A stretch of DNA of 56,342 bases from the NCBI GenBank assembly GCA_023267045.1, contig JAHFOB010000004.1, forward strand, positions 1-56,342, given 5' to 3'. The stretch comes from Candidatus Zambryskiibacteriota bacterium (GTDB lineage Bacteria; Patescibacteriota; Minisyncoccia; Phycocordibacterales; DATDWN01). The translations under genes were made by a program, and so were the position numbers. Below, in pieces: positions 3,461-55,023 of this stretch. The notes under the pieces are model-generated. The model saw only the letters and a list, made by a program, of their open reading frames with translations. It was not told where the DNA came from and searched no databases. The number at the start of each line of letters is the position of its first letter. The stretch's first letter is position 1.

Positions 3461-3500
3461 AAAAGTCCCCTTGTAGGCTCGTCCTACAAGGGTCCTTTTT
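3461..3500 (-). terminator. Hairpin terminator downstream of the NYN gene
   Basis: cccttgtagg(3468-3477)/cctacaaggg(3483-3492) form a 10-bp stem, flanked by an A-run and a T-run. Confidence 0.6.
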
Positions 3501-4970: not shown

Positions 4971-5214
4971 ACTAGACTATCATACTCTATATTAATCTGT
5001 CAAGCTCTTTTATCAAAATCATCAAAAAACCTTACAGGTTCTGTACACCTTTCGCTTTCTGATTACAGAACGCTCAAGGTCTTGCATTTGGGTCCCTTAT
5101 CCCAAATTCACCTCAAAATAAGGGTTTTTTGAATCCGTATTGGGATGGCGTAAGCCATACCTGGCTCAGAGGATTTTTGGCGAAGGTCGCGTATAAAATT
5201 TGGAAATGTAAAAT

Positions 5215-5239
5215 CCCCTTGAAGACCGTCTTCAAGGGG
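5215..5239. terminator. Palindromic hairpin CCCCTTGAAGACCGTCTTCAAGGGG (repeat; second copy at 10847-10871)
   Basis: A perfect 11-bp stem flanked by aaat/attt. The 25-mer is identical at 10847-10871. Confidence 0.7.
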
Positions 5240-5429
5240 ATTTCCACGGTTGTAGAACGAATTAAATTGCCTCAGATGCTAGGCGCGGAAAAGTTTGCGA
5301 GCGAGCCTAGAACTGCTGAAACTGGATGCAGTTCTAGGCGGAAAGGTGAATGGGCGAGGAGCCGTACAACTCGTACGGTGACGAGAACATTTGCCTTTCC
5401 AACAACGAAATGCGCCAGTTTCAGCAGTT

Positions 5430-10846: not shown

Positions 10847-10871
10847 CCCCTTGAAGACCGTCTTCAAGGGG
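10847..10871 (-). terminator. Terminator hairpin of the GC-rich gene (same 25-mer as 5215-5239)
   Basis: The minus strand reads ccccttgaagacggtcttcaagggg followed by ...acatttttt. Confidence 0.7.
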
Positions 10872-17459: not shown

Positions 17460-18438
17460 TAGAATTTCTTAATTCATACGTATCCCCATGACTCAATAAT
17501 CCAAGACATGATTGGATTGTTTCTCTCGTTGGACTACCCCGTAACCCCTTCAGCATCCCCCTCTTCGCCACCGTCCGTAATACTCTATGATGCGGAAAGT
17601 GTACCCACCCAAGAAAATCTACACCAGAAGAGAGAGTTCTGATGTGGATTTTATTTGGATGAAGTGTCAGATTTAATCTCTCTTTCAGATTTACTACAAT
17701 ATACTGTAGTAAATTATGTAACTCATGTTTGTTGTGTGAGAAGAAGACAAAATCATCTGCGTAACGGATGTAGTACTTTTGATGTAGTCTGTGTTTAACA
17801 TATTGATCAAACTGGTTCATGTAGATGTTCACTAGGAGTTGTGATGTCAGGTTGCCCAGAGGCAGGCCTTTCTTAATATACGATATATCGTATATTAGTG
17901 GAGATGAGGAAAAACTTGAGATGACTTGGTTCAATAGCCAGAGTGTGTCTTTGTCTAGTATGTGATATGTCAATATTTCTAGAAGTATTTTGTGGTCAAT
18001 AGAAGCAAAGAATTTCCTCACGTCACATTTTAGTATCCAACACTGTCGTGTGTTGTTCTTACTTACTTTCCTTCCAAAATCTTTGAATCTGTTGAGAGCT
18101 CTGTGAGTTCCCTTCCACTTTCTACATGAATACGAGTCGTGAATGAATTGAGTGTCGAAATATGGATAGAGTATCCTGTAGATAGCGTGATGGAGTAGTC
18201 TGTCTCTGACAGTAGCTTTATGGATGTTTCGTGGTTTAGGGTCGGAGATGTTGAAAGCTGTGTAGCCTCCGTGGGAGTAGGTTTTGGAAGTGAGGTCATT
18301 TTGAAGTGAAATGATATTATCCATCAAATTCATTTGAAATTCTTGTACATCTTTTTTATTTTTCTTTCCTTTTAGAAATTCTTTCCAAGCAAGAAGTAAA
18401 TTGTCGGTAGAAATGATAGTATTGTATGAAATATCCAT
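17392..18438 (-). CDS. DGR-type reverse transcriptase
   Basis: RT motifs include GLPLGNLTSQLLVNIYMN (the DGR-typical xGNLTSQ) and IRYADDFVFF. The likely start is ATG 18438 (MDISYNTIIS...). The 3' end overlaps the convergent ORF 17181-17459 by 68 nt. Confidence 0.9.
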   Translation of the reverse strand: MDISYNTIISTDNLLLAWKEFLKGKKNKKDVQEFQMNLMDNIISLQNDLTSKTYSHGGYTAFNISDPKPRNIHKATVRDRLLHHAIYRILYPYFDTQFIHDSYSCRKWKGTHRALNRFKDFGRKVSKNNTRQCWILKCDVRKFFASIDHKILLEILTYHILDKDTLWLLNQVISSFSSSPLIYDISYIKKGLPLGNLTSQLLVNIYMNQFDQYVKHRLHQKYYIRYADDFVFFSHNKHELHNLLQYIVVNLKERLNLTLHPNKIHIRTLSSGVDFLGWVHFPHHRVLRTVAKRGMLKGLRGSPTRETIQSCLGLLSHGDTYELRNSIKVWLYSSPLRGCLDLLHLDLR

Positions 18439-19301: not shown

Positions 19302-19328
19302 CCGCCCACGATATCCAATCGTGGGCGG
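19302..19328 (-). other. GC-rich hairpin downstream of VR (terminator and/or DGR target-recognition hairpin)
   Basis: ccgcccacgat-atcca-atcgtgggcgg has an 11-bp stem and is followed by TTTT on the minus strand. Confidence 0.65.
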
Positions 19329-27840: not shown

Positions 27841-28944
27841 ATGTGGCTCAAAACCATTTTCTCTTTCATAGTGGCACATTTATTTTTATTTGGTACAACA
27901 AGTCCAAAAGTTTCTACAATACCAGTATCGACTTCAAGCACACCAATCGTCTCCGCGATTGCTACAACAAGCACAAAAATAGCAACGTCCACTCCATTAA
28001 AAACAAAAATAGTTGCTAAAATTGCAGTAAAACCTGTCTCAAAAACTATAGAAACAAATCAATCAACATCGACACCAAACACATATGTAGAACCCACTTA
28101 TGATTTTGAACTGATAAACACGTTCGCTAGAAAAGCCATCGTCAATATTCTCTGTACTGCAAAAGGCGGTGAACTCTCCCCTATTTCAGGTACTGGAATA
28201 ATCATAAATCCAAACGGTCTCATCCTAACAAACGCGCACATCGCGGAGTATTTTCTTTTGCGTGATTTTCGACAAAAAGATTTCCTAGAATGTGTTATTC
28301 GTACAGGCAGTCCAGCTTATCCAAAATATAATGCTGAAATAGTTTATATTTCCCCAACTTGGGTAGAAGACAATAAATCTCTATTGAAAGAAGCTGTGCA
28401 GAAAGGTACGGGAGAAAATGATTTTGCTTTTTTGAGAATCGTGAGCGCTATAAACGGATCAGACCTGCCTCAGACTTTTTCTTACATTCCGATGAATGTC
28501 AGTGAAATCATAAACAAAAATGAACCTGTATTGCTCGCTTCTTATGCCGCTGGATTTCTGGGTGGACTTTCAATTTTACAAAACTTAAGCATCGCTACGG
28601 CTGTAACAAATGTTCAGGATTACTTCACATTTAAGCAAAGTACTATTGATTTGCTATCTGTGGGCGGAACAATTGTCTCTCAAAAAGGTTCATCCGGTGG
28701 TGCAGTGGTAGATAGCGGAGCGACAGTTATTGGCATGATTTCAACAAGTTCTGACGGAAACACAACGAGCAACAGAGAATTAAATGCTATTACTTCGGCA
28801 TATATAAACAGAAGTTTGCAAAACGAACTTGGCATGACACTCTTGGAATTTGAAAATCAGGATATTGCCAAATTTGCAAAAAAATTTCAGGAAATAAATG
28901 TACCGAACCTGACAAAACTTATCACTGACGAACTAAGCAAATAA
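27841..28944 (+). CDS. Secreted trypsin-like serine protease
   Basis: His (LTNAHIAEY), Asp (NDFAFLRI) and Ser (QKGSSGGAVVD) triad contexts, plus an N-terminal hydrophobic anchor. Confidence 0.8.
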   Translation: MWLKTIFSFIVAHLFLFGTTSPKVSTIPVSTSSTPIVSAIATTSTKIATSTPLKTKIVAKIAVKPVSKTIETNQSTSTPNTYVEPTYDFELINTFARKAIVNILCTAKGGELSPISGTGIIINPNGLILTNAHIAEYFLLRDFRQKDFLECVIRTGSPAYPKYNAEIVYISPTWVEDNKSLLKEAVQKGTGENDFAFLRIVSAINGSDLPQTFSYIPMNVSEIINKNEPVLLASYAAGFLGGLSILQNLSIATAVTNVQDYFTFKQSTIDLLSVGGTIVSQKGSSGGAVVDSGATVIGMISTSSDGNTTSNRELNAITSAYINRSLQNELGMTLLEFENQDIAKFAKKFQEINVPNLTKLITDELSK

Positions 28945-28974
28945 TATTTTACTACAATATACTGTAGTAAAATA

Positions 28975-29280
28975 TTATTTAGAATTCTCAGCAGAGACTT
29001 GGATTAACATTTGAAAATTGTCATCAGAAACCGCTTTATTTGGTTTTTCAAAACCACACTTCACGCATTTGTGAGTAATAATATATTCCTCGCCTTTTTT
29101 CTTTACACCAATCGGTTCCATCATTCCCCCACAGGTATTTAGTCTATCGCCTGGTGAAATATCAACATGCTTTGACCACAAACATTCTGGACAATGGTTC
29201 GTATACCCATTCCCAACCACAATAAAACCGCACCTCTCACACTTAAAGTTCTCGACATTTTTTATAAATTTACTAGACAT
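28975..29280 (-). CDS. RNHCP-domain zinc-ribbon protein
   Basis: FKCERCGF...GYTNHCPECLWSKHVD. Confidence 0.75.
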   Translation of the reverse strand: MSSKFIKNVENFKCERCGFIVVGNGYTNHCPECLWSKHVDISPGDRLNTCGGMMEPIGVKKKGEEYIITHKCVKCGFEKPNKAVSDDNFQMLIQVSAENSK

Positions 29281-29292
29281 AACACTTTCTTG

Positions 29293-29323
29293 CCCCGTAG
29301 TGAGCTATGCTCTACTACCAGGG
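29293..29323. repeat. Family 2 palindromic element (31-nt short form)
   Basis: ccccgtagtgagctatgctctactaccaggg. Confidence 0.8.
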
Positions 29324-29363: not shown

Positions 29364-29996
29364 TTAAAATTCTTTTTCATCACCTTCTAGCATTACAACA
29401 AACTCAATACCTTGTGGGGACAACAATTTCAAAGGAAGATTATGTGCTGTACCAAATCGTGTTCCATCATGTACAGGAAAAGCTTTTTTTGGTTTAAGTA
29501 ACAAAGCATAATCGATTGCTTCACTTATTTTCATCCAAGGTCCAGAAACTGGAAGTGCTAAAATTTCTACACTTCTCTGAGGATCAGTGAAACTATCACC
29601 CGGATACCACAATTTACCATCTATAAAAAATCCTGTATTTGAAGAAACCGGAATAGAACTGTGCATCATGGCGTGTTTTTCGCCTATTCCCACTATTGAA
29701 ACCCCACCAAGCGAAACTGTGTCTTGATTATTAATAACTGTATGTTTTATATCTTCGTCATTCAAAAGTTCTCCGACAGATGTATTTGTAAATATTTCTA
29801 CTTTAGGATTGTTTTTTAAAATAGTTTTAAGTGACTCTATATGAAAATGATCCTGATGCTCGTGAGTAAAAAGAATATAATTTAGGCCTGTAAGCTTACT
29901 GTGTTCCTCTACTGTGTAACTGCCAGGATCAGTTAAGATAACTTTGCTACCAACTTCTATCCTCAAACAACAATGCCCAAGTTTTTTTATTTTCAT
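29364..29996 (-). CDS. MBL-fold metallo-hydrolase
   Basis: THEHQDH motif; 210 aa. Confidence 0.85.
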   Translation of the reverse strand: MKIKKLGHCCLRIEVGSKVILTDPGSYTVEEHSKLTGLNYILFTHEHQDHFHIESLKTILKNNPKVEIFTNTSVGELLNDEDIKHTVINNQDTVSLGGVSIVGIGEKHAMMHSSIPVSSNTGFFIDGKLWYPGDSFTDPQRSVEILALPVSGPWMKISEAIDYALLLKPKKAFPVHDGTRFGTAHNLPLKLLSPQGIEFVVMLEGDEKEF

Positions 29997-38095: not shown

Positions 38096-38163
38096 AAATT
38101 TACAAAAACCGCCAAGAGGCGGTTTTTGCTTGACTCTAAAAATGTTGGGTATAAAATAATAAG

Positions 38164-38376
38164 GTCCTGTCGGAAGCAATGCGAGTCGATAGCTTACCAG
38201 GCGGTAAGCGTCGAAAACAGAACACCTGAAAGGGCAGTGGGGGAACTTCCGCGTGCTGATCACCCACCCCCACTGTCCCGATCGGGTTAGTTCTTTAGAA
38301 AATTCTGGTGATTCCATTACAATTCGCTCTGCGAGCGAACAACCGATTCTCATTTTTTGGGAATTCGGTTTTTTAT
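38164..38376 (+). ncRNA. Candidate GC-rich structured RNA (R3), strand uncertain, family unknown
   Basis: Plus-strand TTGACT(38130-38135)-16-TAAAAT. Hairpins: tcgatagcttacc/ggtaagcgtcga, gggcagtggggg/cccccactgtccc and ttcgctc/gagcgaa. The terminator hairpin aaccgattc...gaattcggtt is followed by TTTTT (38341-38375). Confidence 0.3.
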
Positions 38377-38408
38377 TTAGCAAAACTTTGTTACAATTAG
38401 TCTAAATG

Positions 38409-38537
38409 CCCCGTAGTAGAAGTTGGCATTGCAAAGTGTACTTTGCTAGAAAACCAAATGCCAACTTCACTACAGGGCTTAGCCCTGTAGTGAGCTAGGC
38501 TCTACTACCACGGGCTATCCCGTAGTGAAAATGACAT
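38409..38537. repeat. Composite of family 2 palindromes: 69-nt long form, nested 32-nt short form, then the arm atcccgtagtgaaaatgacat
   Basis: 38409-38477 matches 51608-51676 with only 3 substitutions. 38483-38514 is a short form absent from the 51.6-kb copy. Confidence 0.85.
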
Positions 38538-38620
38538 TTGAAATAAAATTATGTATATAAATATAAAATGGTCGATATTAGTGATGAATAATAAAGAAAA
38601 AATGGCCAGCTCTTTGAGCT

Positions 38621-39505
38621 ATGTCATTTTCTACTAACGGAATGCCCCCTGAACAAAAAGATCCTAGAATTCCTATAAAATCTCTTCGAACATACCAGGG
38701 AGATGTGGAAGAAGCGCTACACAAAAACAATCTTGGCACTACAAATATATTTGTTGCTGAACAAAAAAGAAAAGAGAAAGAACCTGTTGATCTAAAACAG
38801 CAAGAAGTAAAAACTGAAAATAGAAATAAATTTTTTGTGACTATCGGTATTTCTCTATTTATACTTGGGATAATCGCCGTTGGTGGTGTTTACTATTTAA
38901 AAAATAAAGAACAGGTTGTGGTTATCCAGAAAACCAAAGCCCTGATTAGTTTTTCGCAAGAAAAGGATTTTGTGATTGAAAATTCTACCCGAGCAAAACT
39001 TTCATCTGAAATATTGTCGGAAAATAAATCTTTCAAATTGCCACCGAATTCTGTTCTGTATATAAACACCACAACAGCAAAAGGCGATAAAGCTGATGTC
39101 TCGAGTGTTCTCACCACACTTGCACCAGCTATGCCGGCTTCACTTGAGCGAGCTTTTGAAGGCGAGTACATGATAGGAGTGTATTCTTTTGATAAAAACT
39201 CACCGTTTATTATTCTTTCTACAAAAGATTTTGGCAGTAGTTGGAGTGGAATGCTCAAATGGGAAAAAGATATTGTTAGTGATTTAGGAAAAATATTTGA
39301 AGTTCCAGAAGACAGCTCAACTGTAAGCGGAGTCTGGGCTGATAAAGCTTTGAAAAATAAGGATTTGCGAATTTTGAAAGATAGTAACAAGAACACGGTT
39401 CTATTGTATTCGTTTATAGATAAAAACACTTTGGTCATAACAAGAAATGAGGCTATTTTCAGTGCTGTTTTGGGTAAATATGTAATAAGTCAGCAGGAAA
39501 GATAA
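38621..39505 (+). CDS. Membrane-anchored hypothetical protein
   Basis: 294 aa with one TM segment (FFVTIGISLFILGIIAVGGVYYL). The start is ambiguous between ATG 38621 and ATG 38642, because the first 21 nt form a hairpin arm. Confidence 0.6.
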   Translation: MSFSTNGMPPEQKDPRIPIKSLRTYQGDVEEALHKNNLGTTNIFVAEQKRKEKEPVDLKQQEVKTENRNKFFVTIGISLFILGIIAVGGVYYLKNKEQVVVIQKTKALISFSQEKDFVIENSTRAKLSSEILSENKSFKLPPNSVLYINTTTAKGDKADVSSVLTTLAPAMPASLERAFEGEYMIGVYSFDKNSPFIILSTKDFGSSWSGMLKWEKDIVSDLGKIFEVPEDSSTVSGVWADKALKNKDLRILKDSNKNTVLLYSFIDKNTLVITRNEAIFSAVLGKYVISQQER

Positions 39506-43571: not shown

Positions 43572-43680
43572 ATCCCGTTAGAAATAACGGAAACTAGTAC
43601 GTATGAAAATAGAATTATTACAAAATAATCGCTCTAGGGTCTTCGGAATCAAAACTGAAGTTTCCTATTTCTAACGGGAT
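43572..43680. repeat. Hairpin atcccgttagaaataacggaaact...agtttcctatttctaacgggat that embeds the pcrA start codon
   Basis: The right arm ends in cgggATg (ATG at 43679). The terminal motif is the same as at 7525-7642. Confidence 0.7.
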
Positions 43681-45670
43681 GAATTATCTAGAAAACCTGA
43701 ACGAAAACCAGAAAAAAGCTGTTTTAACTACTGAAGGACCCGTTTTGATCGTAGCTGGTGCTGGAGCTGGCAAAACCAAGACTATAACTCACAGAATTTT
43801 ACATCTAATACTGAACGGGATCTCACCGGAGAGAATTTTGGCTATAACTTTTACAAACAAAGCAGCTAAAGAAATGCGGGATAGGGTTTTACAATTGCTC
43901 AGATTCGAATATGGAGAGCGCTCGCCCCGTAGCGAGCTCCGCTCTGCTACCGGGGTGCCATTTGTCAGCACATTTCACTCACTAGGAGTACAAATTCTGA
44001 AAGAAAATGCCGAATTGTTAAAACTGCCACGACATTTCAATATTTTTGATACAGCCGACTCAAAAAAAGCTCTGAAAGAAGCAATGCTCCACCTCGGCAT
44101 AGACCCGAAAGAAAATTTGGATAAGGTCAGGCATATTATTTCTAACGAAAAAGGTAGAGGAGTGACTGTATCTGAATATCTAGAAAGGGGGGCTTTTGAC
44201 TTTACATCAGAACTTGTAAAAAAAACGTGGGCAAAATACGAAGAGATATTGAATAAAGAAAAAGCTTTGGATTTTGATGATTTACTATTAAAAACTTTGA
44301 AACTCCTACAAAAATATCCTGATATTTTGGAGAAATACCAAGAAAGATTTTTATACATACACGTAGACGAATACCAAGACACAAACAAAGTCCAGAATTA
44401 TATTGTTGACCTTTTAGCTAGGAAATATAGAAATCTGTGTGTTGTTGGAGATACAGATCAAAATATTTATAGTTGGCGAGGAGCAGAAATAAAAAACATG
44501 TTGCATTTCGAAAAAACCTACCCGGAAGTCCAGACTTTTTTTCTCGAACAGAACTATCGTTCGACAAAAAACATCTTGGCCGTTGCAAATGAAATAATCG
44601 AAAAAAATAATTTTCGCATTCCGAAAAAACTTTTTACAGAAAAAGAAGCTGGAGAAAAAATTGGCCTGTTTGAAGGAAGAAGTGAAGTAGATGAAGCACA
44701 TTTTATCGCTTTAAAATCAAAGGAGTTGATAGATGGTGGGGAAAAAGCAGAGGAGATAGCCGTTCTATACAGAGCCAATTTTCAGTCACGCGTATTGGAG
44801 GAAGCTTTTTTGGCCTACGGTGTTCCATACCAAATGCTAGGCACAAAGTTTTTTGAAAGAAAAGAAATCAAAGATGTTTTGAGTTTTATAAAAGCATCGC
44901 TCAATCCAGAAAGTCTGAGTGACTTGACTCGAATTATAAATATTCCTGCTAGAGGTATCGGAAAAACTACTTTACAAAAAATTATTTCTGGAAAAGAATC
45001 TGAATTGCCAGAAAGTATGAAAATAAAAATAAATAATTTCCGAAATATACTTAATGATTTCAAAAATGTCTTGACCAGCCAAAAACCAAGTGATGCTTTG
45101 AAATATATTATAAAAACTTCTGGAATGGAAAATATGTACAACACTGGATTGGAAGAAGATACTGATAGACTAGAAAACGTCATGGAACTTGTGACCCTTG
45201 CCACAGGATACGATATATACCCAGCAGAAGACCCCGAAGTAGAGCAAGCTCACTACGGGGCAAGCGGAATTGAAAAATTTTTGACTGACTCGGCCTTGGC
45301 TACGGACCAAGACGCTCTAGATCAACCAAAAAATGGTGTGAAACTGATGACTGTCCACTCATCAAAAGGTCTTGAATTCGACTACGTTTTCGTCTCTGGT
45401 ATGGAAGCTGATCTTTTTCCCCATACAAAAATGAATCGTGTAAAAAAATCTGGTGAAGAGGCTGAAGAGGAGAGACGACTTTTTTATGTTGCGGTCACTC
45501 GAGCCGGTAAAAAACTTTTCTTGACCTATGCCAGAGTACGGACTATATTTGGGACAATGGAAGTAAATTCTCCATCAGAGTTTCTAGACGATATCCCTGC
45601 AAAATACACAGAGCAAGAATCTTTTGTTGGAGAAACGCCAAGAAAAGCCATATTCAGTATAGATTTCTAA
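43679..45670 (+). CDS. pcrA: ATP-dependent DNA helicase PcrA/UvrD
   Basis: 663 aa with motifs AGAGAGKTKT, TFTNKAAKEM, VDEYQDTN, GDTDQNIYSWRGA, QNYRS, MTVHSSKGLEF and YVAVTRA. Confidence 0.92.
   Translation: MNYLENLNENQKKAVLTTEGPVLIVAGAGAGKTKTITHRILHLILNGISPERILAITFTNKAAKEMRDRVLQLLRFEYGERSPRSELRSATGVPFVSTFHSLGVQILKENAELLKLPRHFNIFDTADSKKALKEAMLHLGIDPKENLDKVRHIISNEKGRGVTVSEYLERGAFDFTSELVKKTWAKYEEILNKEKALDFDDLLLKTLKLLQKYPDILEKYQERFLYIHVDEYQDTNKVQNYIVDLLARKYRNLCVVGDTDQNIYSWRGAEIKNMLHFEKTYPEVQTFFLEQNYRSTKNILAVANEIIEKNNFRIPKKLFTEKEAGEKIGLFEGRSEVDEAHFIALKSKELIDGGEKAEEIAVLYRANFQSRVLEEAFLAYGVPYQMLGTKFFERKEIKDVLSFIKASLNPESLSDLTRIINIPARGIGKTTLQKIISGKESELPESMKIKINNFRNILNDFKNVLTSQKPSDALKYIIKTSGMENMYNTGLEEDTDRLENVMELVTLATGYDIYPAEDPEVEQAHYGASGIEKFLTDSALATDQDALDQPKNGVKLMTVHSSKGLEFDYVFVSGMEADLFPHTKMNRVKKSGEEAEEERRLFYVAVTRAGKKLFLTYARVRTIFGTMEVNSPSEFLDDIPAKYTEQESFVGETPRKAIFSIDF
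43925..43955. repeat. Family 2 short palindrome located in-frame inside pcrA (copy 1)
   Basis: ccccgtagcgagctccgctctgctaccgggg encodes PRSELRSATG between helicase motifs Ia and Ib. Confidence 0.75.
45232..45260. repeat. Family 2 short palindrome located in-frame inside pcrA (copy 2, inverted)
   Basis: ccccgaagtagagcaagctcactacgggg encodes PEVEQAHYG. Confidence 0.75.
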
Positions 45671-51802: not shown

Positions 51803-53905
51803 ATGAAAAAGTTTTTACCCTACATTTTAATGTTTGTAATAGCAGTCGGGTTTTTTAATCCATCATTAGCTGGTGCAGCTTCAGCATACGAAAACTGTGT
51901 AGCTGAAAATAGAGTGCTTGCGGAAACTGCAAGTGATGGCACTGTATACCAAGACTGTAGCCGTTTGCCCGGAGCACCGTCAGATGCATATAAACCAACA
52001 AGTTTAGGGTCGGCAATTTTTGGTGGAAGTGGAGCCGATTGTGGGTTATCTCCCACAACATGGGCTACGTGTTTCTCGCATCTTTTTGTCTGGATCTCCT
52101 ACTTGATTTTAGGACTCGTATCTCTAGTACTTTGGATGGCAGGCGTTCTACTGGATTATGTTTTGAAATACACCATACTCGGAATGTCAGAAAATATAAA
52201 AAATCTAGCTGGAATAAACATTGCATGGAAAACAATAAAAGACTTGATGAACATATTGTTTATATTCCTTTTAGTATACGAAGGAATACTGCTCATAATA
52301 GGCCAAAGTGATGTCGGTAAAATCAGAAAGTTTATTACAGGAATTGTGTTAGCTGCTCTTCTCATAAACTTCAGTTTATTTTTTACAAAAGTTTTGATAG
52401 ATGCTTCAAATATAGTAACTATAGGATTTTATAATTCTATCATTGCTCAATCTTCGGAAGTCGTTAATCCATCAGCAAATTACAACAGCACAACTGGTAA
52501 TATTGACCAAGCTATAAGTACTGGAACGATAAGCGGGCTTTCAGTACCTTTCATGAAAGCTCTTGGAGTTTCTAGTTTCTTTTCAAAAGAAAGTATTAGC
52601 CAGATGAGTTCAAACTCTGGTGGTGATACAAACCTTATAATAATAGGCCTTGCAGGATCAATTCTATTTCTCATTGTCTCTTTTGTTTTTTTTGCAGTTT
52701 CTATGATGTTTATAATAAGATACATCGCTCTTATTGTGCTTCTAATGCTGTCGCCAATCGCATATATGGGGATGGCTCTGCCTTTCATGCAAAAATATGC
52801 TAAGGAATGGTGGGAATCTCTCCAAGGACAGTTACTCTTTGCCCCAGTGTATATGCTCATGACTTGGGTTGTATTAACTTTAATGTTTAGCGGTGGTTTT
52901 ATAACTCAAGCTGGACCAGACGGTTGGTCAAAACTGCTTGTAGGGAGTAATGGAGCCGGAAGCCAAGGTTCAATTTCTCTTTTATTTAATTTTGTTGTAA
53001 TTATTGGGCTCATAATAACAACTCTGGTTATATCAAAAAATATAGCCAAAAAAGGCTCTGACCTCATATCAAGTGCTACAAAAAATCTCACGGCATTTGC
53101 AGGCGGAAAAATTGTCGGTGGAGCTGCAAAAATTGGTAGAAGTACTGTTGGAGCAGCGGGCCAGGCTGTTGCTAACAATCAGTGGCTTCGAGAAAGAGCC
53201 CCTGATAGTAGACTGGCACGTACAGCACTTTCTCTTGGATCAAAAACGGGATCAGCAAGCTTTGATGCTAGAGCAACCAGTAGTTTTGGAGCATTAACAG
53301 ATAAAACAGGTGTAAAAGTTGGTAAAGCTGGAGGAAAAGGTGGGTATCAGAAAGATAGAGAGGATAAAATAAATAAAAGAATGGAATTCTTCGAGAAAAA
53401 TGTTATGGCAGATACCATAACCGGTAACAATGTTGAGAATGAAATGACTAATAGAAGGTGGAATAGTCTTGCAGATTACAATTACTTACAAAATACTGTT
53501 GGATTGAGTGGTGCACAAATTGCGTCTATTAATGCTACTGGTACAAGTAAAAATCAGATTGAAGCACTCGGTATAAACGCACGCCAAGCTGAACTTATGA
53601 GACGAAGAGTACAAACAGATCTCAACCGCGCTTCAGAACAAGAGAACTTAAACAGAAAAGATAGGTATCTACATAATCTTAGTCAAACACATTGGTATAC
53701 ACCTAATTTGTATAGTGGAGTTTCTGAAGATGCTGAAGCGGCGAAAAGGATGAGGGATAATAAAAAAGCTAAAAAAGGAGGCAAGGATAAGATCCTAGCA
53801 GATCTTGCGGCAGTGTTAAAAGAAGAGGAACCTGAGACGACCCCACCAACAGGAGGAGCACCGACAACTCCAACACCTCCCGCAGCAGGAGGAACAACAC
53901 CATGA
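51803..53905 (+). CDS. Polytopic membrane protein, VirB6/TrbL-like by architecture and context
   Basis: A signal or anchor MKKFLPYILMFVIAVGFFNPSLAGA, at least 6 hydrophobic segments and a hydrophilic C-terminal tail ending in PTTPTPPAAGGTTP. The stop overlaps the next ATG (ATGA). Confidence 0.5.
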   Translation: MKKFLPYILMFVIAVGFFNPSLAGAASAYENCVAENRVLAETASDGTVYQDCSRLPGAPSDAYKPTSLGSAIFGGSGADCGLSPTTWATCFSHLFVWISYLILGLVSLVLWMAGVLLDYVLKYTILGMSENIKNLAGINIAWKTIKDLMNILFIFLLVYEGILLIIGQSDVGKIRKFITGIVLAALLINFSLFFTKVLIDASNIVTIGFYNSIIAQSSEVVNPSANYNSTTGNIDQAISTGTISGLSVPFMKALGVSSFFSKESISQMSSNSGGDTNLIIIGLAGSILFLIVSFVFFAVSMMFIIRYIALIVLLMLSPIAYMGMALPFMQKYAKEWWESLQGQLLFAPVYMLMTWVVLTLMFSGGFITQAGPDGWSKLLVGSNGAGSQGSISLLFNFVVIIGLIITTLVISKNIAKKGSDLISSATKNLTAFAGGKIVGGAAKIGRSTVGAAGQAVANNQWLRERAPDSRLARTALSLGSKTGSASFDARATSSFGALTDKTGVKVGKAGGKGGYQKDREDKINKRMEFFEKNVMADTITGNNVENEMTNRRWNSLADYNYLQNTVGLSGAQIASINATGTSKNQIEALGINARQAELMRRRVQTDLNRASEQENLNRKDRYLHNLSQTHWYTPNLYSGVSEDAEAAKRMRDNKKAKKGGKDKILADLAAVLKEEEPETTPPTGGAPTTPTPPAAGGTTP

Positions 53906-55023
53906 TTACAGAAACAGAAAAAATAATCAAAGAAAGAGTCAATAAATTACCATCTGGAGTGTTAATTGCTATTAAGAGTATTTCTTTGGAAGAAAAAATG
54001 AAAGTCGTAGCAAAAAATAATAATTTAAATGAAGAACAGGAAGAATTATTCGCAACAGAAACTACCCTTGTAATATTAGGAATTGAATCGCCAGAAAAAT
54101 ACCCTGATAACCTAGCAGATAATGTTGGCTTAGATGATAAAACAGTTGTAAAAATCGCCAAAGAAGTTGATGAACAAATTCTTACACCAATACTGGAAAT
54201 GGTTGAGAAAAATAAAAAAATAATTTCTCAAAAGCCAAATTCTGAAAAATCTTACGGAAATACACAAAATATCTCCACAGGAGTTAAAGAAAGAGTTATT
54301 GAAATTGCAGTAAAATATGGACTAGATAAAAACCAAGAAAATGCTTTGGTTACGCTTGCCCTATCTGTAATTTCAAACCCAGAAGAAAAAGGTCTACTGC
54401 AGAATAATATATCTCAAACTCTAAAAATATCTGGCTTGATGGCGGAACAAATAGTAAGTGACTTAGAAAAAAGAGTTTTCAGTCAACAGGTAAAATTAGA
54501 AAAAATTCCCGACAAAAAACCAACAGAAAATAAACCTGTTGAAACAAAAATTCCTGAAGTGAAACCCACAAACTTGCCTATGGTTGAGAAAAATGAGGTA
54601 GCACATGATGTAAAAAAAGATAGTAGCGAGGGATCAGTAGCTAGTAGCAAGGAAAATACTACAGAACCAGATATGTCAAAGAGACACTTTGACATTGAAC
54701 AAACACCGCCTCCTGTGCCAAAACCTGTTATGCCAGCTCCAGTATACAAACCTGATATTCCAGAGCCAGTACAAAGACCTTTTTCTGTGCCTAGAATAAT
54801 CCCAGTAGTAGAGCAAAGCTCACTACGGGACACGGTTACAATGCCAAAAGAAGAAGAAATGACCAAACCCCAAAGCCCAATGACCAATGAGGATGCGAAA
54901 CCTGTTCAGAATATGATGAATGATAAAATGACAAAAGTAACAACGGGTATGTCAGAAAAACCCAAACCGGACGAACCACCAAAGAAATACAGTGCTGATC
55001 CATATAGAGAACCGTTGGAGTAA
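53902..55023 (+). CDS. Hypothetical protein with a Pro/Lys-rich C-terminal half (T4SS-like cluster)
   Basis: 373 aa, translationally coupled to the upstream gene. Confidence 0.55.
   Translation: MITETEKIIKERVNKLPSGVLIAIKSISLEEKMKVVAKNNNLNEEQEELFATETTLVILGIESPEKYPDNLADNVGLDDKTVVKIAKEVDEQILTPILEMVEKNKKIISQKPNSEKSYGNTQNISTGVKERVIEIAVKYGLDKNQENALVTLALSVISNPEEKGLLQNNISQTLKISGLMAEQIVSDLEKRVFSQQVKLEKIPDKKPTENKPVETKIPEVKPTNLPMVEKNEVAHDVKKDSSEGSVASSKENTTEPDMSKRHFDIEQTPPPVPKPVMPAPVYKPDIPEPVQRPFSVPRIIPVVEQSSLRDTVTMPKEEEMTKPQSPMTNEDAKPVQNMMNDKMTKVTTGMSEKPKPDEPPKKYSADPYREPLE
54801..54829. repeat. Family 2 short palindrome located in-frame inside the 373-aa ORF
   Basis: cccagtagtagagcaaagctcactacggg encodes PVVEQSSLR. 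Confidence 0.7.

Follow-up and report, generated by a model that had tools for sequence, protein, structure and literature searches.

The 31-nt palindrome at positions 43925-43955 of contig JAHFOB010000004.1, a stretch of 56,342 nt from a Candidatus Zambryskiibacteriota bacterium (hereafter the window), lies in the helicase gene pcrA and is in all likelihood the hairpin part of a non-coding dispersed repeat of ~36 nt, of the type of REPs (repetitive extragenic palindromes) and Rickettsia palindromic elements (RPE), which was inserted in-frame in pcrA and is tolerated there. The original prediction had located this palindrome in pcrA, read through as PRSELRSATG, and we found its sequence, coordinates and frame to be as it had described; the gene contains two copies, not one. 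In this genome the family has inserted at least five times within 56 kb, two of them in pcrA, as follows:

43679-45670, plus strand: pcrA (UvrD/PcrA-family helicase), an intact open reading frame (ORF) of 663 aa with two repeat copies inside
43925-43955, plus strand: copy 1 in pcrA (site 1), hairpin ccccgtagcgagctccgctctgctaccgggg, read in frame as PRSELRSATG (residues P83-G92)
45233-45265, minus strand: copy 2 in pcrA (site 2), degenerate and in opposite orientation, element strand GCTTGCCCCGTAGTGAGCTTGCTCTACTTCGGG, found with the covariance model
29293-29323, plus strand: intergenic copy between ORFs 28975-29280 and 29364-29996 (both minus strand), covariance-model score 54.9 bits
38466-38531, plus strand: clustered copy with its core at 38483-38514, nested with partial inverted copies
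54801-54831, minus strand: copy inside ORF 53902-55023 (plus strand), core at 54805-54826, covariance-model score 61.1 bits

The window contains the core GTAGYGAGCTNNGCTCTRCTAC four times exactly, where 100 dinucleotide shuffles give an expectation of 0.00, and the two intergenic copies to which the pcrA palindrome had been likened (29293-29323 and 38483-38514) are both genuine members of the family. A covariance model built from 122 copies recovers these four window copies plus a fifth at 45227-45266. Copy 1 is matched over 43919-43959 (53.3 bits, E 7e-14) and its offset from the start of pcrA (43925-43679 = 246) is a multiple of three. As single-stranded DNA it folds at -12.7 kcal/mol (z = -3.0), the window copies as a whole ranging from z -3.0 to -5.2. 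Copy 2 is matched on the minus strand over 45227-45266 (34 bits, E 5e-8, in a run without filters), the matched segment on its own strand being gcttgCCCCGTAGTGAGCTTGCTCTACTTCGGGG; in pcrA it is read as PEVEQAHYGAS (residues 519-529).

The repeat unit is ~36 nt long (12 codons) and consists of a C-Y-T-G leader followed by CCCC GTAGYGAGC TTT GCTC-T-RCTAC-T-GGGG T. The hairpin is imperfect, with two conserved single-base bulges, and the leader is one-sided. In an alignment of 125 copies, conservation is confined to positions -8 to +27 around the core. Over 122 distinct copies, 96% of the stem cells are paired; GTAG is invariant and pairs with CTAC in all 122, and the conserved unpaired flank is C-Y-T-G. 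The pair 15-28, the sole core pair left free by the search pattern, is U-A in 88 copies, C-G in 31 (the subfamily of copy 1) and unpaired in three, while the outer-stem pair 7-37 is C-G in 74 and U-A in 27. None of 500 shuffles reaches the observed covariation, and shifting the partner columns abolishes the pairing. An intrinsic terminator was rejected, as there is no conservation past +27 and copies occur in both orientations relative to the flanking genes.

The core pattern is present at more than 117 loci among the matches listed in species-representative genomes, nearly all of them Patescibacteria, where by our own estimate ~4 matches in 596 Gb would arise by chance. The lineages include Paceibacteria, Nomura-, Zambryski-, Taylor-, Uhr-, Magasanik- and Falkowbacteria, Kazan, WWE3, and metagenome-assembled genomes labelled Saccharibacteria; a few matches come from Flavobacteriaceae, with the hairpin arranged in arrays. 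The majority of copies, the two in pcrA among them, stand alone, and nested or inverted partial copies are found in the window (38466-38531) and at loci L006, L007, L030, L048, L073, L095 and L098. With a unit of ~36 nt, five copies in 56 kb and more than 117 listed loci, the family falls in the REP-like class of dispersed stem-loops of 20-40 bp. Counts of degenerate copies by fuzzy regular expression proved unusable, because the palindrome matches both strands. A search against Rfam 15 left the family unmatched: only four tRNAs pass the gathering threshold in the window, and nothing near the copies has E<0.05. IMG/VR gave only two matches, and phage carriage was dropped as a route of spread.

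Insert 1 lies between the helix of motif Ia and the strand that bears STFHS, a linker which the original prediction had held to be unusually long. This linker measures 26 aa in the window PcrA, against 13 in solved PcrA/UvrD structures. The top relatives of the product in the PDB are the Geobacillus PcrA structures 1PJR, 2PJR and 3PJR, and in HMMER alignments a gap of 13 residues in 1PJR/3PJR, and of nine in UvrD1, stands opposite the insert. Copy 1 and its leader (gcgctcg, from ~43918) together account for the surplus of 13 aa (39 nt) over the minimal linker. In an AlphaFold model computed from 61 homologs (mean pLDDT 81.4), residues 81-91 have pLDDT<50 between a confident helix (60-78) and a confident strand (95-98), and they are the sole long segment of this kind in that region of an otherwise confident model.

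The comparison with orthologs agrees with the expectation that the segment would be specific to this lineage. Identity of the pcrA product to 119 listed PcrA/UvrD homologs from Patescibacteria, all with PF00580/PF13361, is 67-78%, and the nearest PcrA among the matches listed from 5.8 billion proteins searched is 78% identical. Across 120 close homologs, linker lengths at site 1 run from 13 to 52 aa, most often 20, and PRSELRSATG is present in none of them, including the closest (74-78% identity). No copy of the family was detected, either by the covariance model or by a fuzzy pattern, in the 442 kb made up by 80 orthologous pcrA loci of other species. Judged by these alignments, both pcrA copies are most probably lineage-specific insertions. 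Three of the PcrA homologs (P0066, P0073 and P0094) are 1011-1057 aa long, some 350-400 aa longer, and carry the precomputed annotation PF14890, which we take to be the intein splicing domain; this suggests that these relatives have inteins inside their PcrA.

That the segment is native PcrA sequence, and resembles the intergenic palindromes through chance or convergence, has a practically negligible probability. The site 1 linker does vary in all lineages, so that its length alone is no evidence of insertion; yet the four core matches against none expected, the covariance-model E of 7e-14, the features that it has in common with 122 other copies (leader, loop position and both bulges), and the absence of copy 1 from every ortholog all speak against it, and the shuffle and ortholog tests refute it.

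Site 2 gives the cleaner picture. The motif pattern matched 108 homologs, and in 90 of them the segment is 14 aa long, TxYDxYPxEEGIEK, as opposed to 25 aa in the window PcrA, TGYDIYPAED-PEVEQAHYGAS-GIEK. At the codon level, the window reads gaa gac / 33 nt / gga att and locus L118 gaa gac / ggt att, a clean insertion of 33 nt without target duplication, with the leader GCTTG within the inserted piece. The CYTG leader therefore belongs to the inserted unit. A miniature inverted-repeat transposable element was rejected, since the whole element is one hairpin and its insertion at site 2 left no target-site duplication. In the AlphaFold model insert 2 falls in a coil (510-529), with a dip in pLDDT at 523-525.

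The alignment and the model predict both loops to be flexible, and their lengths differ from one ortholog to another. Across lineages the site 1 linker ranges from 13 to 66 aa, and several loci have strong hairpins there that are unrelated in sequence: cccataggcctagcctatggg in L128, aggtctgaccttgg...ccaaaggtcagacct in L134 and gtgcgcccgagcgaagctcgggcgcac in L169. Larger inserts of 43 aa (L187) and 66 aa (L125) fold at -69 and -54 kcal/mol, and site 2 of L124 contains a perfect 21-bp palindrome; the inserts of L124, L187 and L125 look like other, longer hairpin elements read in frame. The L134 palindrome has a dispersed family of its own, with 97 loci across Patescibacteria, several of them in the L134 genome. 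Linkers above the median length have a mean fold z of -1.1 at site 1 and -2.5 at site 2, against -0.3 at both sites for the shorter ones, and linkers at or below the median, including the modal length, have no hairpin excess (mean z ~-0.3). The two pcrA loops would thus be permissive sites where insertions escape purifying selection, and this may be why unrelated palindromes occupy the same two loops in other lineages. The 11-13 added residues would be passengers that the helicase tolerates and would have no functional part in it, and such inserts may be tolerated because they comprise whole codons, are read in stop-free hydrophilic frames and fall in flexible, variable loops.

A census over the family, suggested by the original prediction, indicates that pcrA is one host among many. 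Of 126 copies, 21-23 (~15-18%) lie within ORFs that are 110-120 aa or longer, 86 are spanned by short ORFs alone and nine by none, and the family is thus predominantly extragenic. Besides PcrA, 15 hosts in other genomes have Pfam matches:

DNA-related hosts: UvrC, DinB, TopA (three species, three different sites), RNase HII, YraN/UPF0102, HsdS and a PD-(D/E)XK nuclease
Other hosts: TrmD (two species, same site), a class I aminoacyl-tRNA synthetase, YchF, SecD/F, a glycosyltransferase and a DUF4012 protein

The measured inserts are 33, 36 and 39 nt long, all whole codons, and in DinB the gap relative to the solved DinB is exactly 12 aa. The aminoacyl-tRNA synthetase host (L060, 5174-7996, minus strand; 941 aa) also carries a histidine-phosphatase domain (PF00300, residues 264-429), which is N-terminal to the best-scoring catalytic stretch (462-604, Pfam coordinates) and may stand between the two matched catalytic stretches of the synthetase.

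Of the element's six reading frames, four are free of stops, as read from the sequence. The frames used by the 19 copies in long ORFs, all three of them hydrophilic, are PRSELRSTTG (seven copies), PSSRAKLTTG (six) and PVVEQSSLRG (six), and 18 of these 19 have a host confirmed by family (the two PcrA copies plus 16 with Pfam matches). None of the 19 intragenic copies uses the hydrophobic frame CPVVSFALLLG (0.75^19 = 0.004), against which the encoded peptides are filtered. Orientation is free of bias in genes (eight copies in the same orientation, 11 in the opposite one) and without clear bias between co-directional genes (18 and 29, respectively), which argues for an element acting at the level of DNA. 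A strand-specific role in RNA was rejected on the latter counts.

These data also bear on the possibility that the repeat is a selected cis-acting structure in DNA or mRNA, such as a signal for pausing, processing or stability or the binding site of a conserved host protein, with the peptide as a by-product, which we consider quite unlikely. The conservation of the 22-nt core across many Patescibacteria lineages and some Flavobacteriaceae would fit such a role, as would the compensatory stem substitutions, including two pairs at the same TrmD site and in the same frame, the recurrence of different palindromes at the same two PcrA loops, and a G (position -5) that faces a T (position +27), a wobble pair possible solely in RNA or single-stranded DNA of one strand. 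However, both orientations occur in and between genes without bias, the host genes are unrelated to each other, no T-run follows the hairpin, no Rfam family matches, and all 80 orthologous pcrA loci are without the element. Moreover, most ortholog linkers have no excess of folding, hence the hairpin is not required at the pcrA sites.

The hosts look enriched for genes of DNA metabolism, although these are raw counts: 11 of 20 copies if HsdS, YraN and the PD-(D/E)XK nuclease are included, and nine of 20 without HsdS and YraN. An uptake or recombination signal, like the DNA uptake sequence (DUS) of Neisseria or the uptake signal sequence (USS) of Haemophilus, would account for such hosts (PcrA twice, UvrC, DinB, TopA three times, RNase HII, YraN, HsdS and the PD-(D/E)XK nuclease) and for a core sequence conserved across lineages. 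DUS and USS also occur inside genes, and a bias of theirs towards genome-maintenance genes is said to have been reported by Davidsen et al. in 2004. Nevertheless, an uptake signal is very improbable here: the density of the family, ~1 per 11 kb in the window and zero in 442 kb of related genomes, is far under that of uptake signals, the compensatory changes indicate that structure and not sequence is kept, nested dimers occur as in REPs, and the bias in host genes is putative.

Insertion of a REP/RPE-type repeat is best discussed against the systems already described. Di Nocera, De Gregorio and Rocco (2013; BMC Genomics 14:522, PMC3733652) catalogued intragenic REPs of GTAG- and CGTC-tagged superfamilies, found them inside the UvrD/Rep helicase, UvrABC, DNA polymerases and other repair genes, equated the Rickettsia RPE-4 and RPE-6 with CGTC REPs, and suggested that such inserts reside in flexible linkers; their survey covered eight phyla, Patescibacteria not among them. 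Like these intragenic REPs, the present family consists of short dispersed stem-loops (20-40 bp) that bear an unpaired tag on one side, it has subfamilies distinguished by complementary stem changes, with G-T pairs, some of its copies form inverted dimers and clusters, and it is mostly intergenic, with a minority of copies read in frame in known genes, notably those of replication and repair. Unlike in the GTAG REP superfamily, GTAG is here paired to CTAC in the stem and the unpaired tag is CYTG; moreover, one 22-nt core is found across very divergent lineages, whereas their REPs are species- or genus-specific.

The likeness to RPE drawn by the original prediction stands in so far as an in-frame palindrome has entered a conserved, intact gene of a bacterium with a reduced genome, yielding a peptide compatible with the fold, and copies exist both in and between genes. 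The closest precedent, however, is the short intragenic REPs, including RPE-4 and RPE-6, and not RPE-1 of 100-150 bp; going by the published descriptions, RPE-4 and RPE-6 are set apart by their CGTC tag (PMC3733652) from the ~36-nt, CYTG-tagged unit described here. The novelty suggested for bacteria of the Candidate Phyla Radiation (CPR) holds in part: literature searches with the sequence itself, and for REP, RAYT (REP-associated tyrosine transposase) and REPIN together with CPR names, returned no description of REP/RPE-like repeats in CPR, but REPs in UvrD/Rep were already on record (PMC3733652), and the observation is less new to that extent. The GTAG...CTAC family is a REP/RPE-like variant in a new phylum and not a new phenomenon.

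How such a repeat would move is suggested by its architecture. RPE are reportedly inserted in frame in conserved genes, as Ogata et al. are said to have described in 2000, and REP-RAYT and REPIN systems reportedly go back to work by Nunvar in 2010, Bertels and Rainey in 2011, and Ton-Hoang and Messing in 2012. Y1/HUH enzymes read a bulged hairpin and a short tag on single-stranded DNA. The present family resembles the REP-RAYT/REPIN systems in its imperfect bulged hairpin and short tag, in the nested inverted dimers at some loci, and in the presence of RayT homologs in the same clade. It may therefore be mobilised in single-stranded form by an HUH/Y1 enzyme that recognises the hairpin, because IS200/IS605 TnpA and RAYT make use of just such features: an asymmetric tag, a hairpin with bulges and stems that change in a compensatory way.

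In search of a candidate enzyme, we found a RayT-like Y1 transposase of 208 aa in Paceibacteria and Nomurabacteria (named RayT by JGI), with 5791 homologs at E<1e-5, the top 120 of which are 70-92% identical. A different, covarying hairpin, TGTCAAAG-N5-CTTTGACA, stands on either side of the gene at 30 RayT loci, and loci L198-L226 look like a bona fide REPtron in CPR. Five genomes carry both RayT and the GTAG family. When E. coli RayT and IS200 TnpA were run by phmmer against every ORF in 1.3 Mb, there was one match, L013 388-1047, which is again flanked by a different hairpin; L013 seems to carry a second RayT paralog beside it. A RAYT enclosed by paired copies was considered and rejected: L108 encloses a sigma-factor gene, L078 clpP-tig, and L027 is without a transposase. 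CTTG precedes both the GTAG...CTAC hairpin and the hairpin upstream of RayT and was considered as a common cleavage site, but was also rejected, the dispersed RayT-type copies in the window being without CTTG, and is a lead only. Two exact copies of this second hairpin are present in the window:

227-247: (a)TGTCAAAG-N5-CTTTGACA(t)
54674-54694: (a)TGTCAAAG-N5-CTTTGACA(t), inside ORF 53902-55023, read as DMSKRHFDI

ORF 53902-55023 has no Pfam match, and its GTAG-family copy (54801-54831) is read as IPVVEQSSLRD in a proline-rich, low-complexity tail; with the second hairpin at 54674-54694 it thus hosts two different palindrome families. At least three dispersed hairpin families are confirmed, two of them with copies in the window, and further two-copy palindromes are candidates.

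Several points weigh against the insertion of a selfish REP/RPE-type repeat as we propose it. The 22-nt core is near-identical across very divergent lineages, which is unusual for a selfish REP and hints at a further constraint; the two TrmD copies, at the same site of proteins that are 61% identical, differ by two compensatory stem changes, which hint at the same. None of the 30 RayT loci is flanked by the GTAG...CTAC family, which is represented there by one copy, 3 kb from the gene, and phmmer over the ORFs of the window detected no Y1 transposase or RayT gene. As no enzyme is linked to the GTAG...CTAC family, another, unsampled RAYT family may be responsible, and in this respect, with no RAYT gene flanked by the element, the family differs from a REPtron, as well as from the REP-RAYT arrangement of Paceibacteria with its other hairpin. 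We infer recent mobility from orthologs that are at most 78% identical. The site 1 linker of the closest orthologs is 20 aa long, not 13, so that the ancestral state of site 1 is uncertain and the putative 39-nt insertion is drawn from distant comparisons. Finally, translation and function of the insert-bearing PcrA are assumed from the intact ORF.

Part of this could be met if the hairpin were, across Patescibacteria, the substrate of a conserved, vertically inherited host protein, HUH/RayT-like or otherwise hairpin-binding, in a long-term association of the REPIN-RAYT type within minimal genomes, which we regard as unlikely. If true, this would explain the near-invariant 22-nt core, the pairing kept inside the TrmD coding sequence and the hydrophilic 12-codon unit, and the apparent excess of DNA-metabolism hosts (PcrA, UvrC, DinB, TopA and RNase HII) would mark where single-stranded DNA or the enzyme acts. 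An in-frame insertion of a dispersed repeat, tolerated by PcrA, is nonetheless the reading that we favour.

The surroundings of some copies are also worth describing. The cluster at 38466-38531 has the layout TCACTACAGGG...CCCTGTAGTGA...CCCGTAGTGAA, resembling a REP dimer or bacterial interspersed mosaic element, and the DNA fold of 38460-38535 reaches -20 kcal/mol (z = -6.4). It is contained in a stretch of ~520 nt (38096-38620) without a convincing ORF, which is bounded by a terminator-like hairpin at 38103-38128 and is followed by a gene beginning at 38621. Rfam at permissive thresholds returned no credible match in this stretch (best E-value 0.076, scores far under the gathering thresholds). 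In the Kazan bacterium METE01 (L010, L078, L096 and L108), the hairpin is embedded in a longer conserved repeat, tcattctggcttgccgcg-hairpin-tccagaatctt, which has complementary outer arms as well, and L108 has a sigma-70-family gene between two copies in inverted orientation.

Perfect stems of 8 bp or more number 26 in the window as a whole, compared with 3-9 in shuffles, which suggests that this genome harbours several other repeat families. The remaining perfect palindromes, of which two (CCCCTTGAAGACCGTCTTCAAGGGG and TTTACTACAATATACTGTAGTAAA) occur in two copies each, are located as follows:

3468-3492: perfect palindrome
5211-5243: perfect palindrome
10847-10871: perfect palindrome, grouped with that at 5211-5243
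17689-17714: perfect palindrome
19302-19328: perfect palindrome
28939-28980: perfect palindrome, grouped with that at 17689-17714

CPR/Patescibacteria genomes are small (~1 Mb) and densely coding, and are thought to be streamlined. The several families of dispersed hairpins described here indicate that selfish or semi-domesticated DNA persists in them and adds length variation to proteins, with some copies in essential genes such as pcrA, topA, uvrC, dinB and trmD. Such repeats may explain lineage-specific 'extra loops' in CPR proteins that would otherwise be read as functional innovations, and they may point to positions in these proteins that are permissive for engineered tags. That genes of repair and replication recur among the hosts echoes an unexplained pattern reported for proteobacterial REPs, for which the Patescibacteria would provide an independent phylum for testing.

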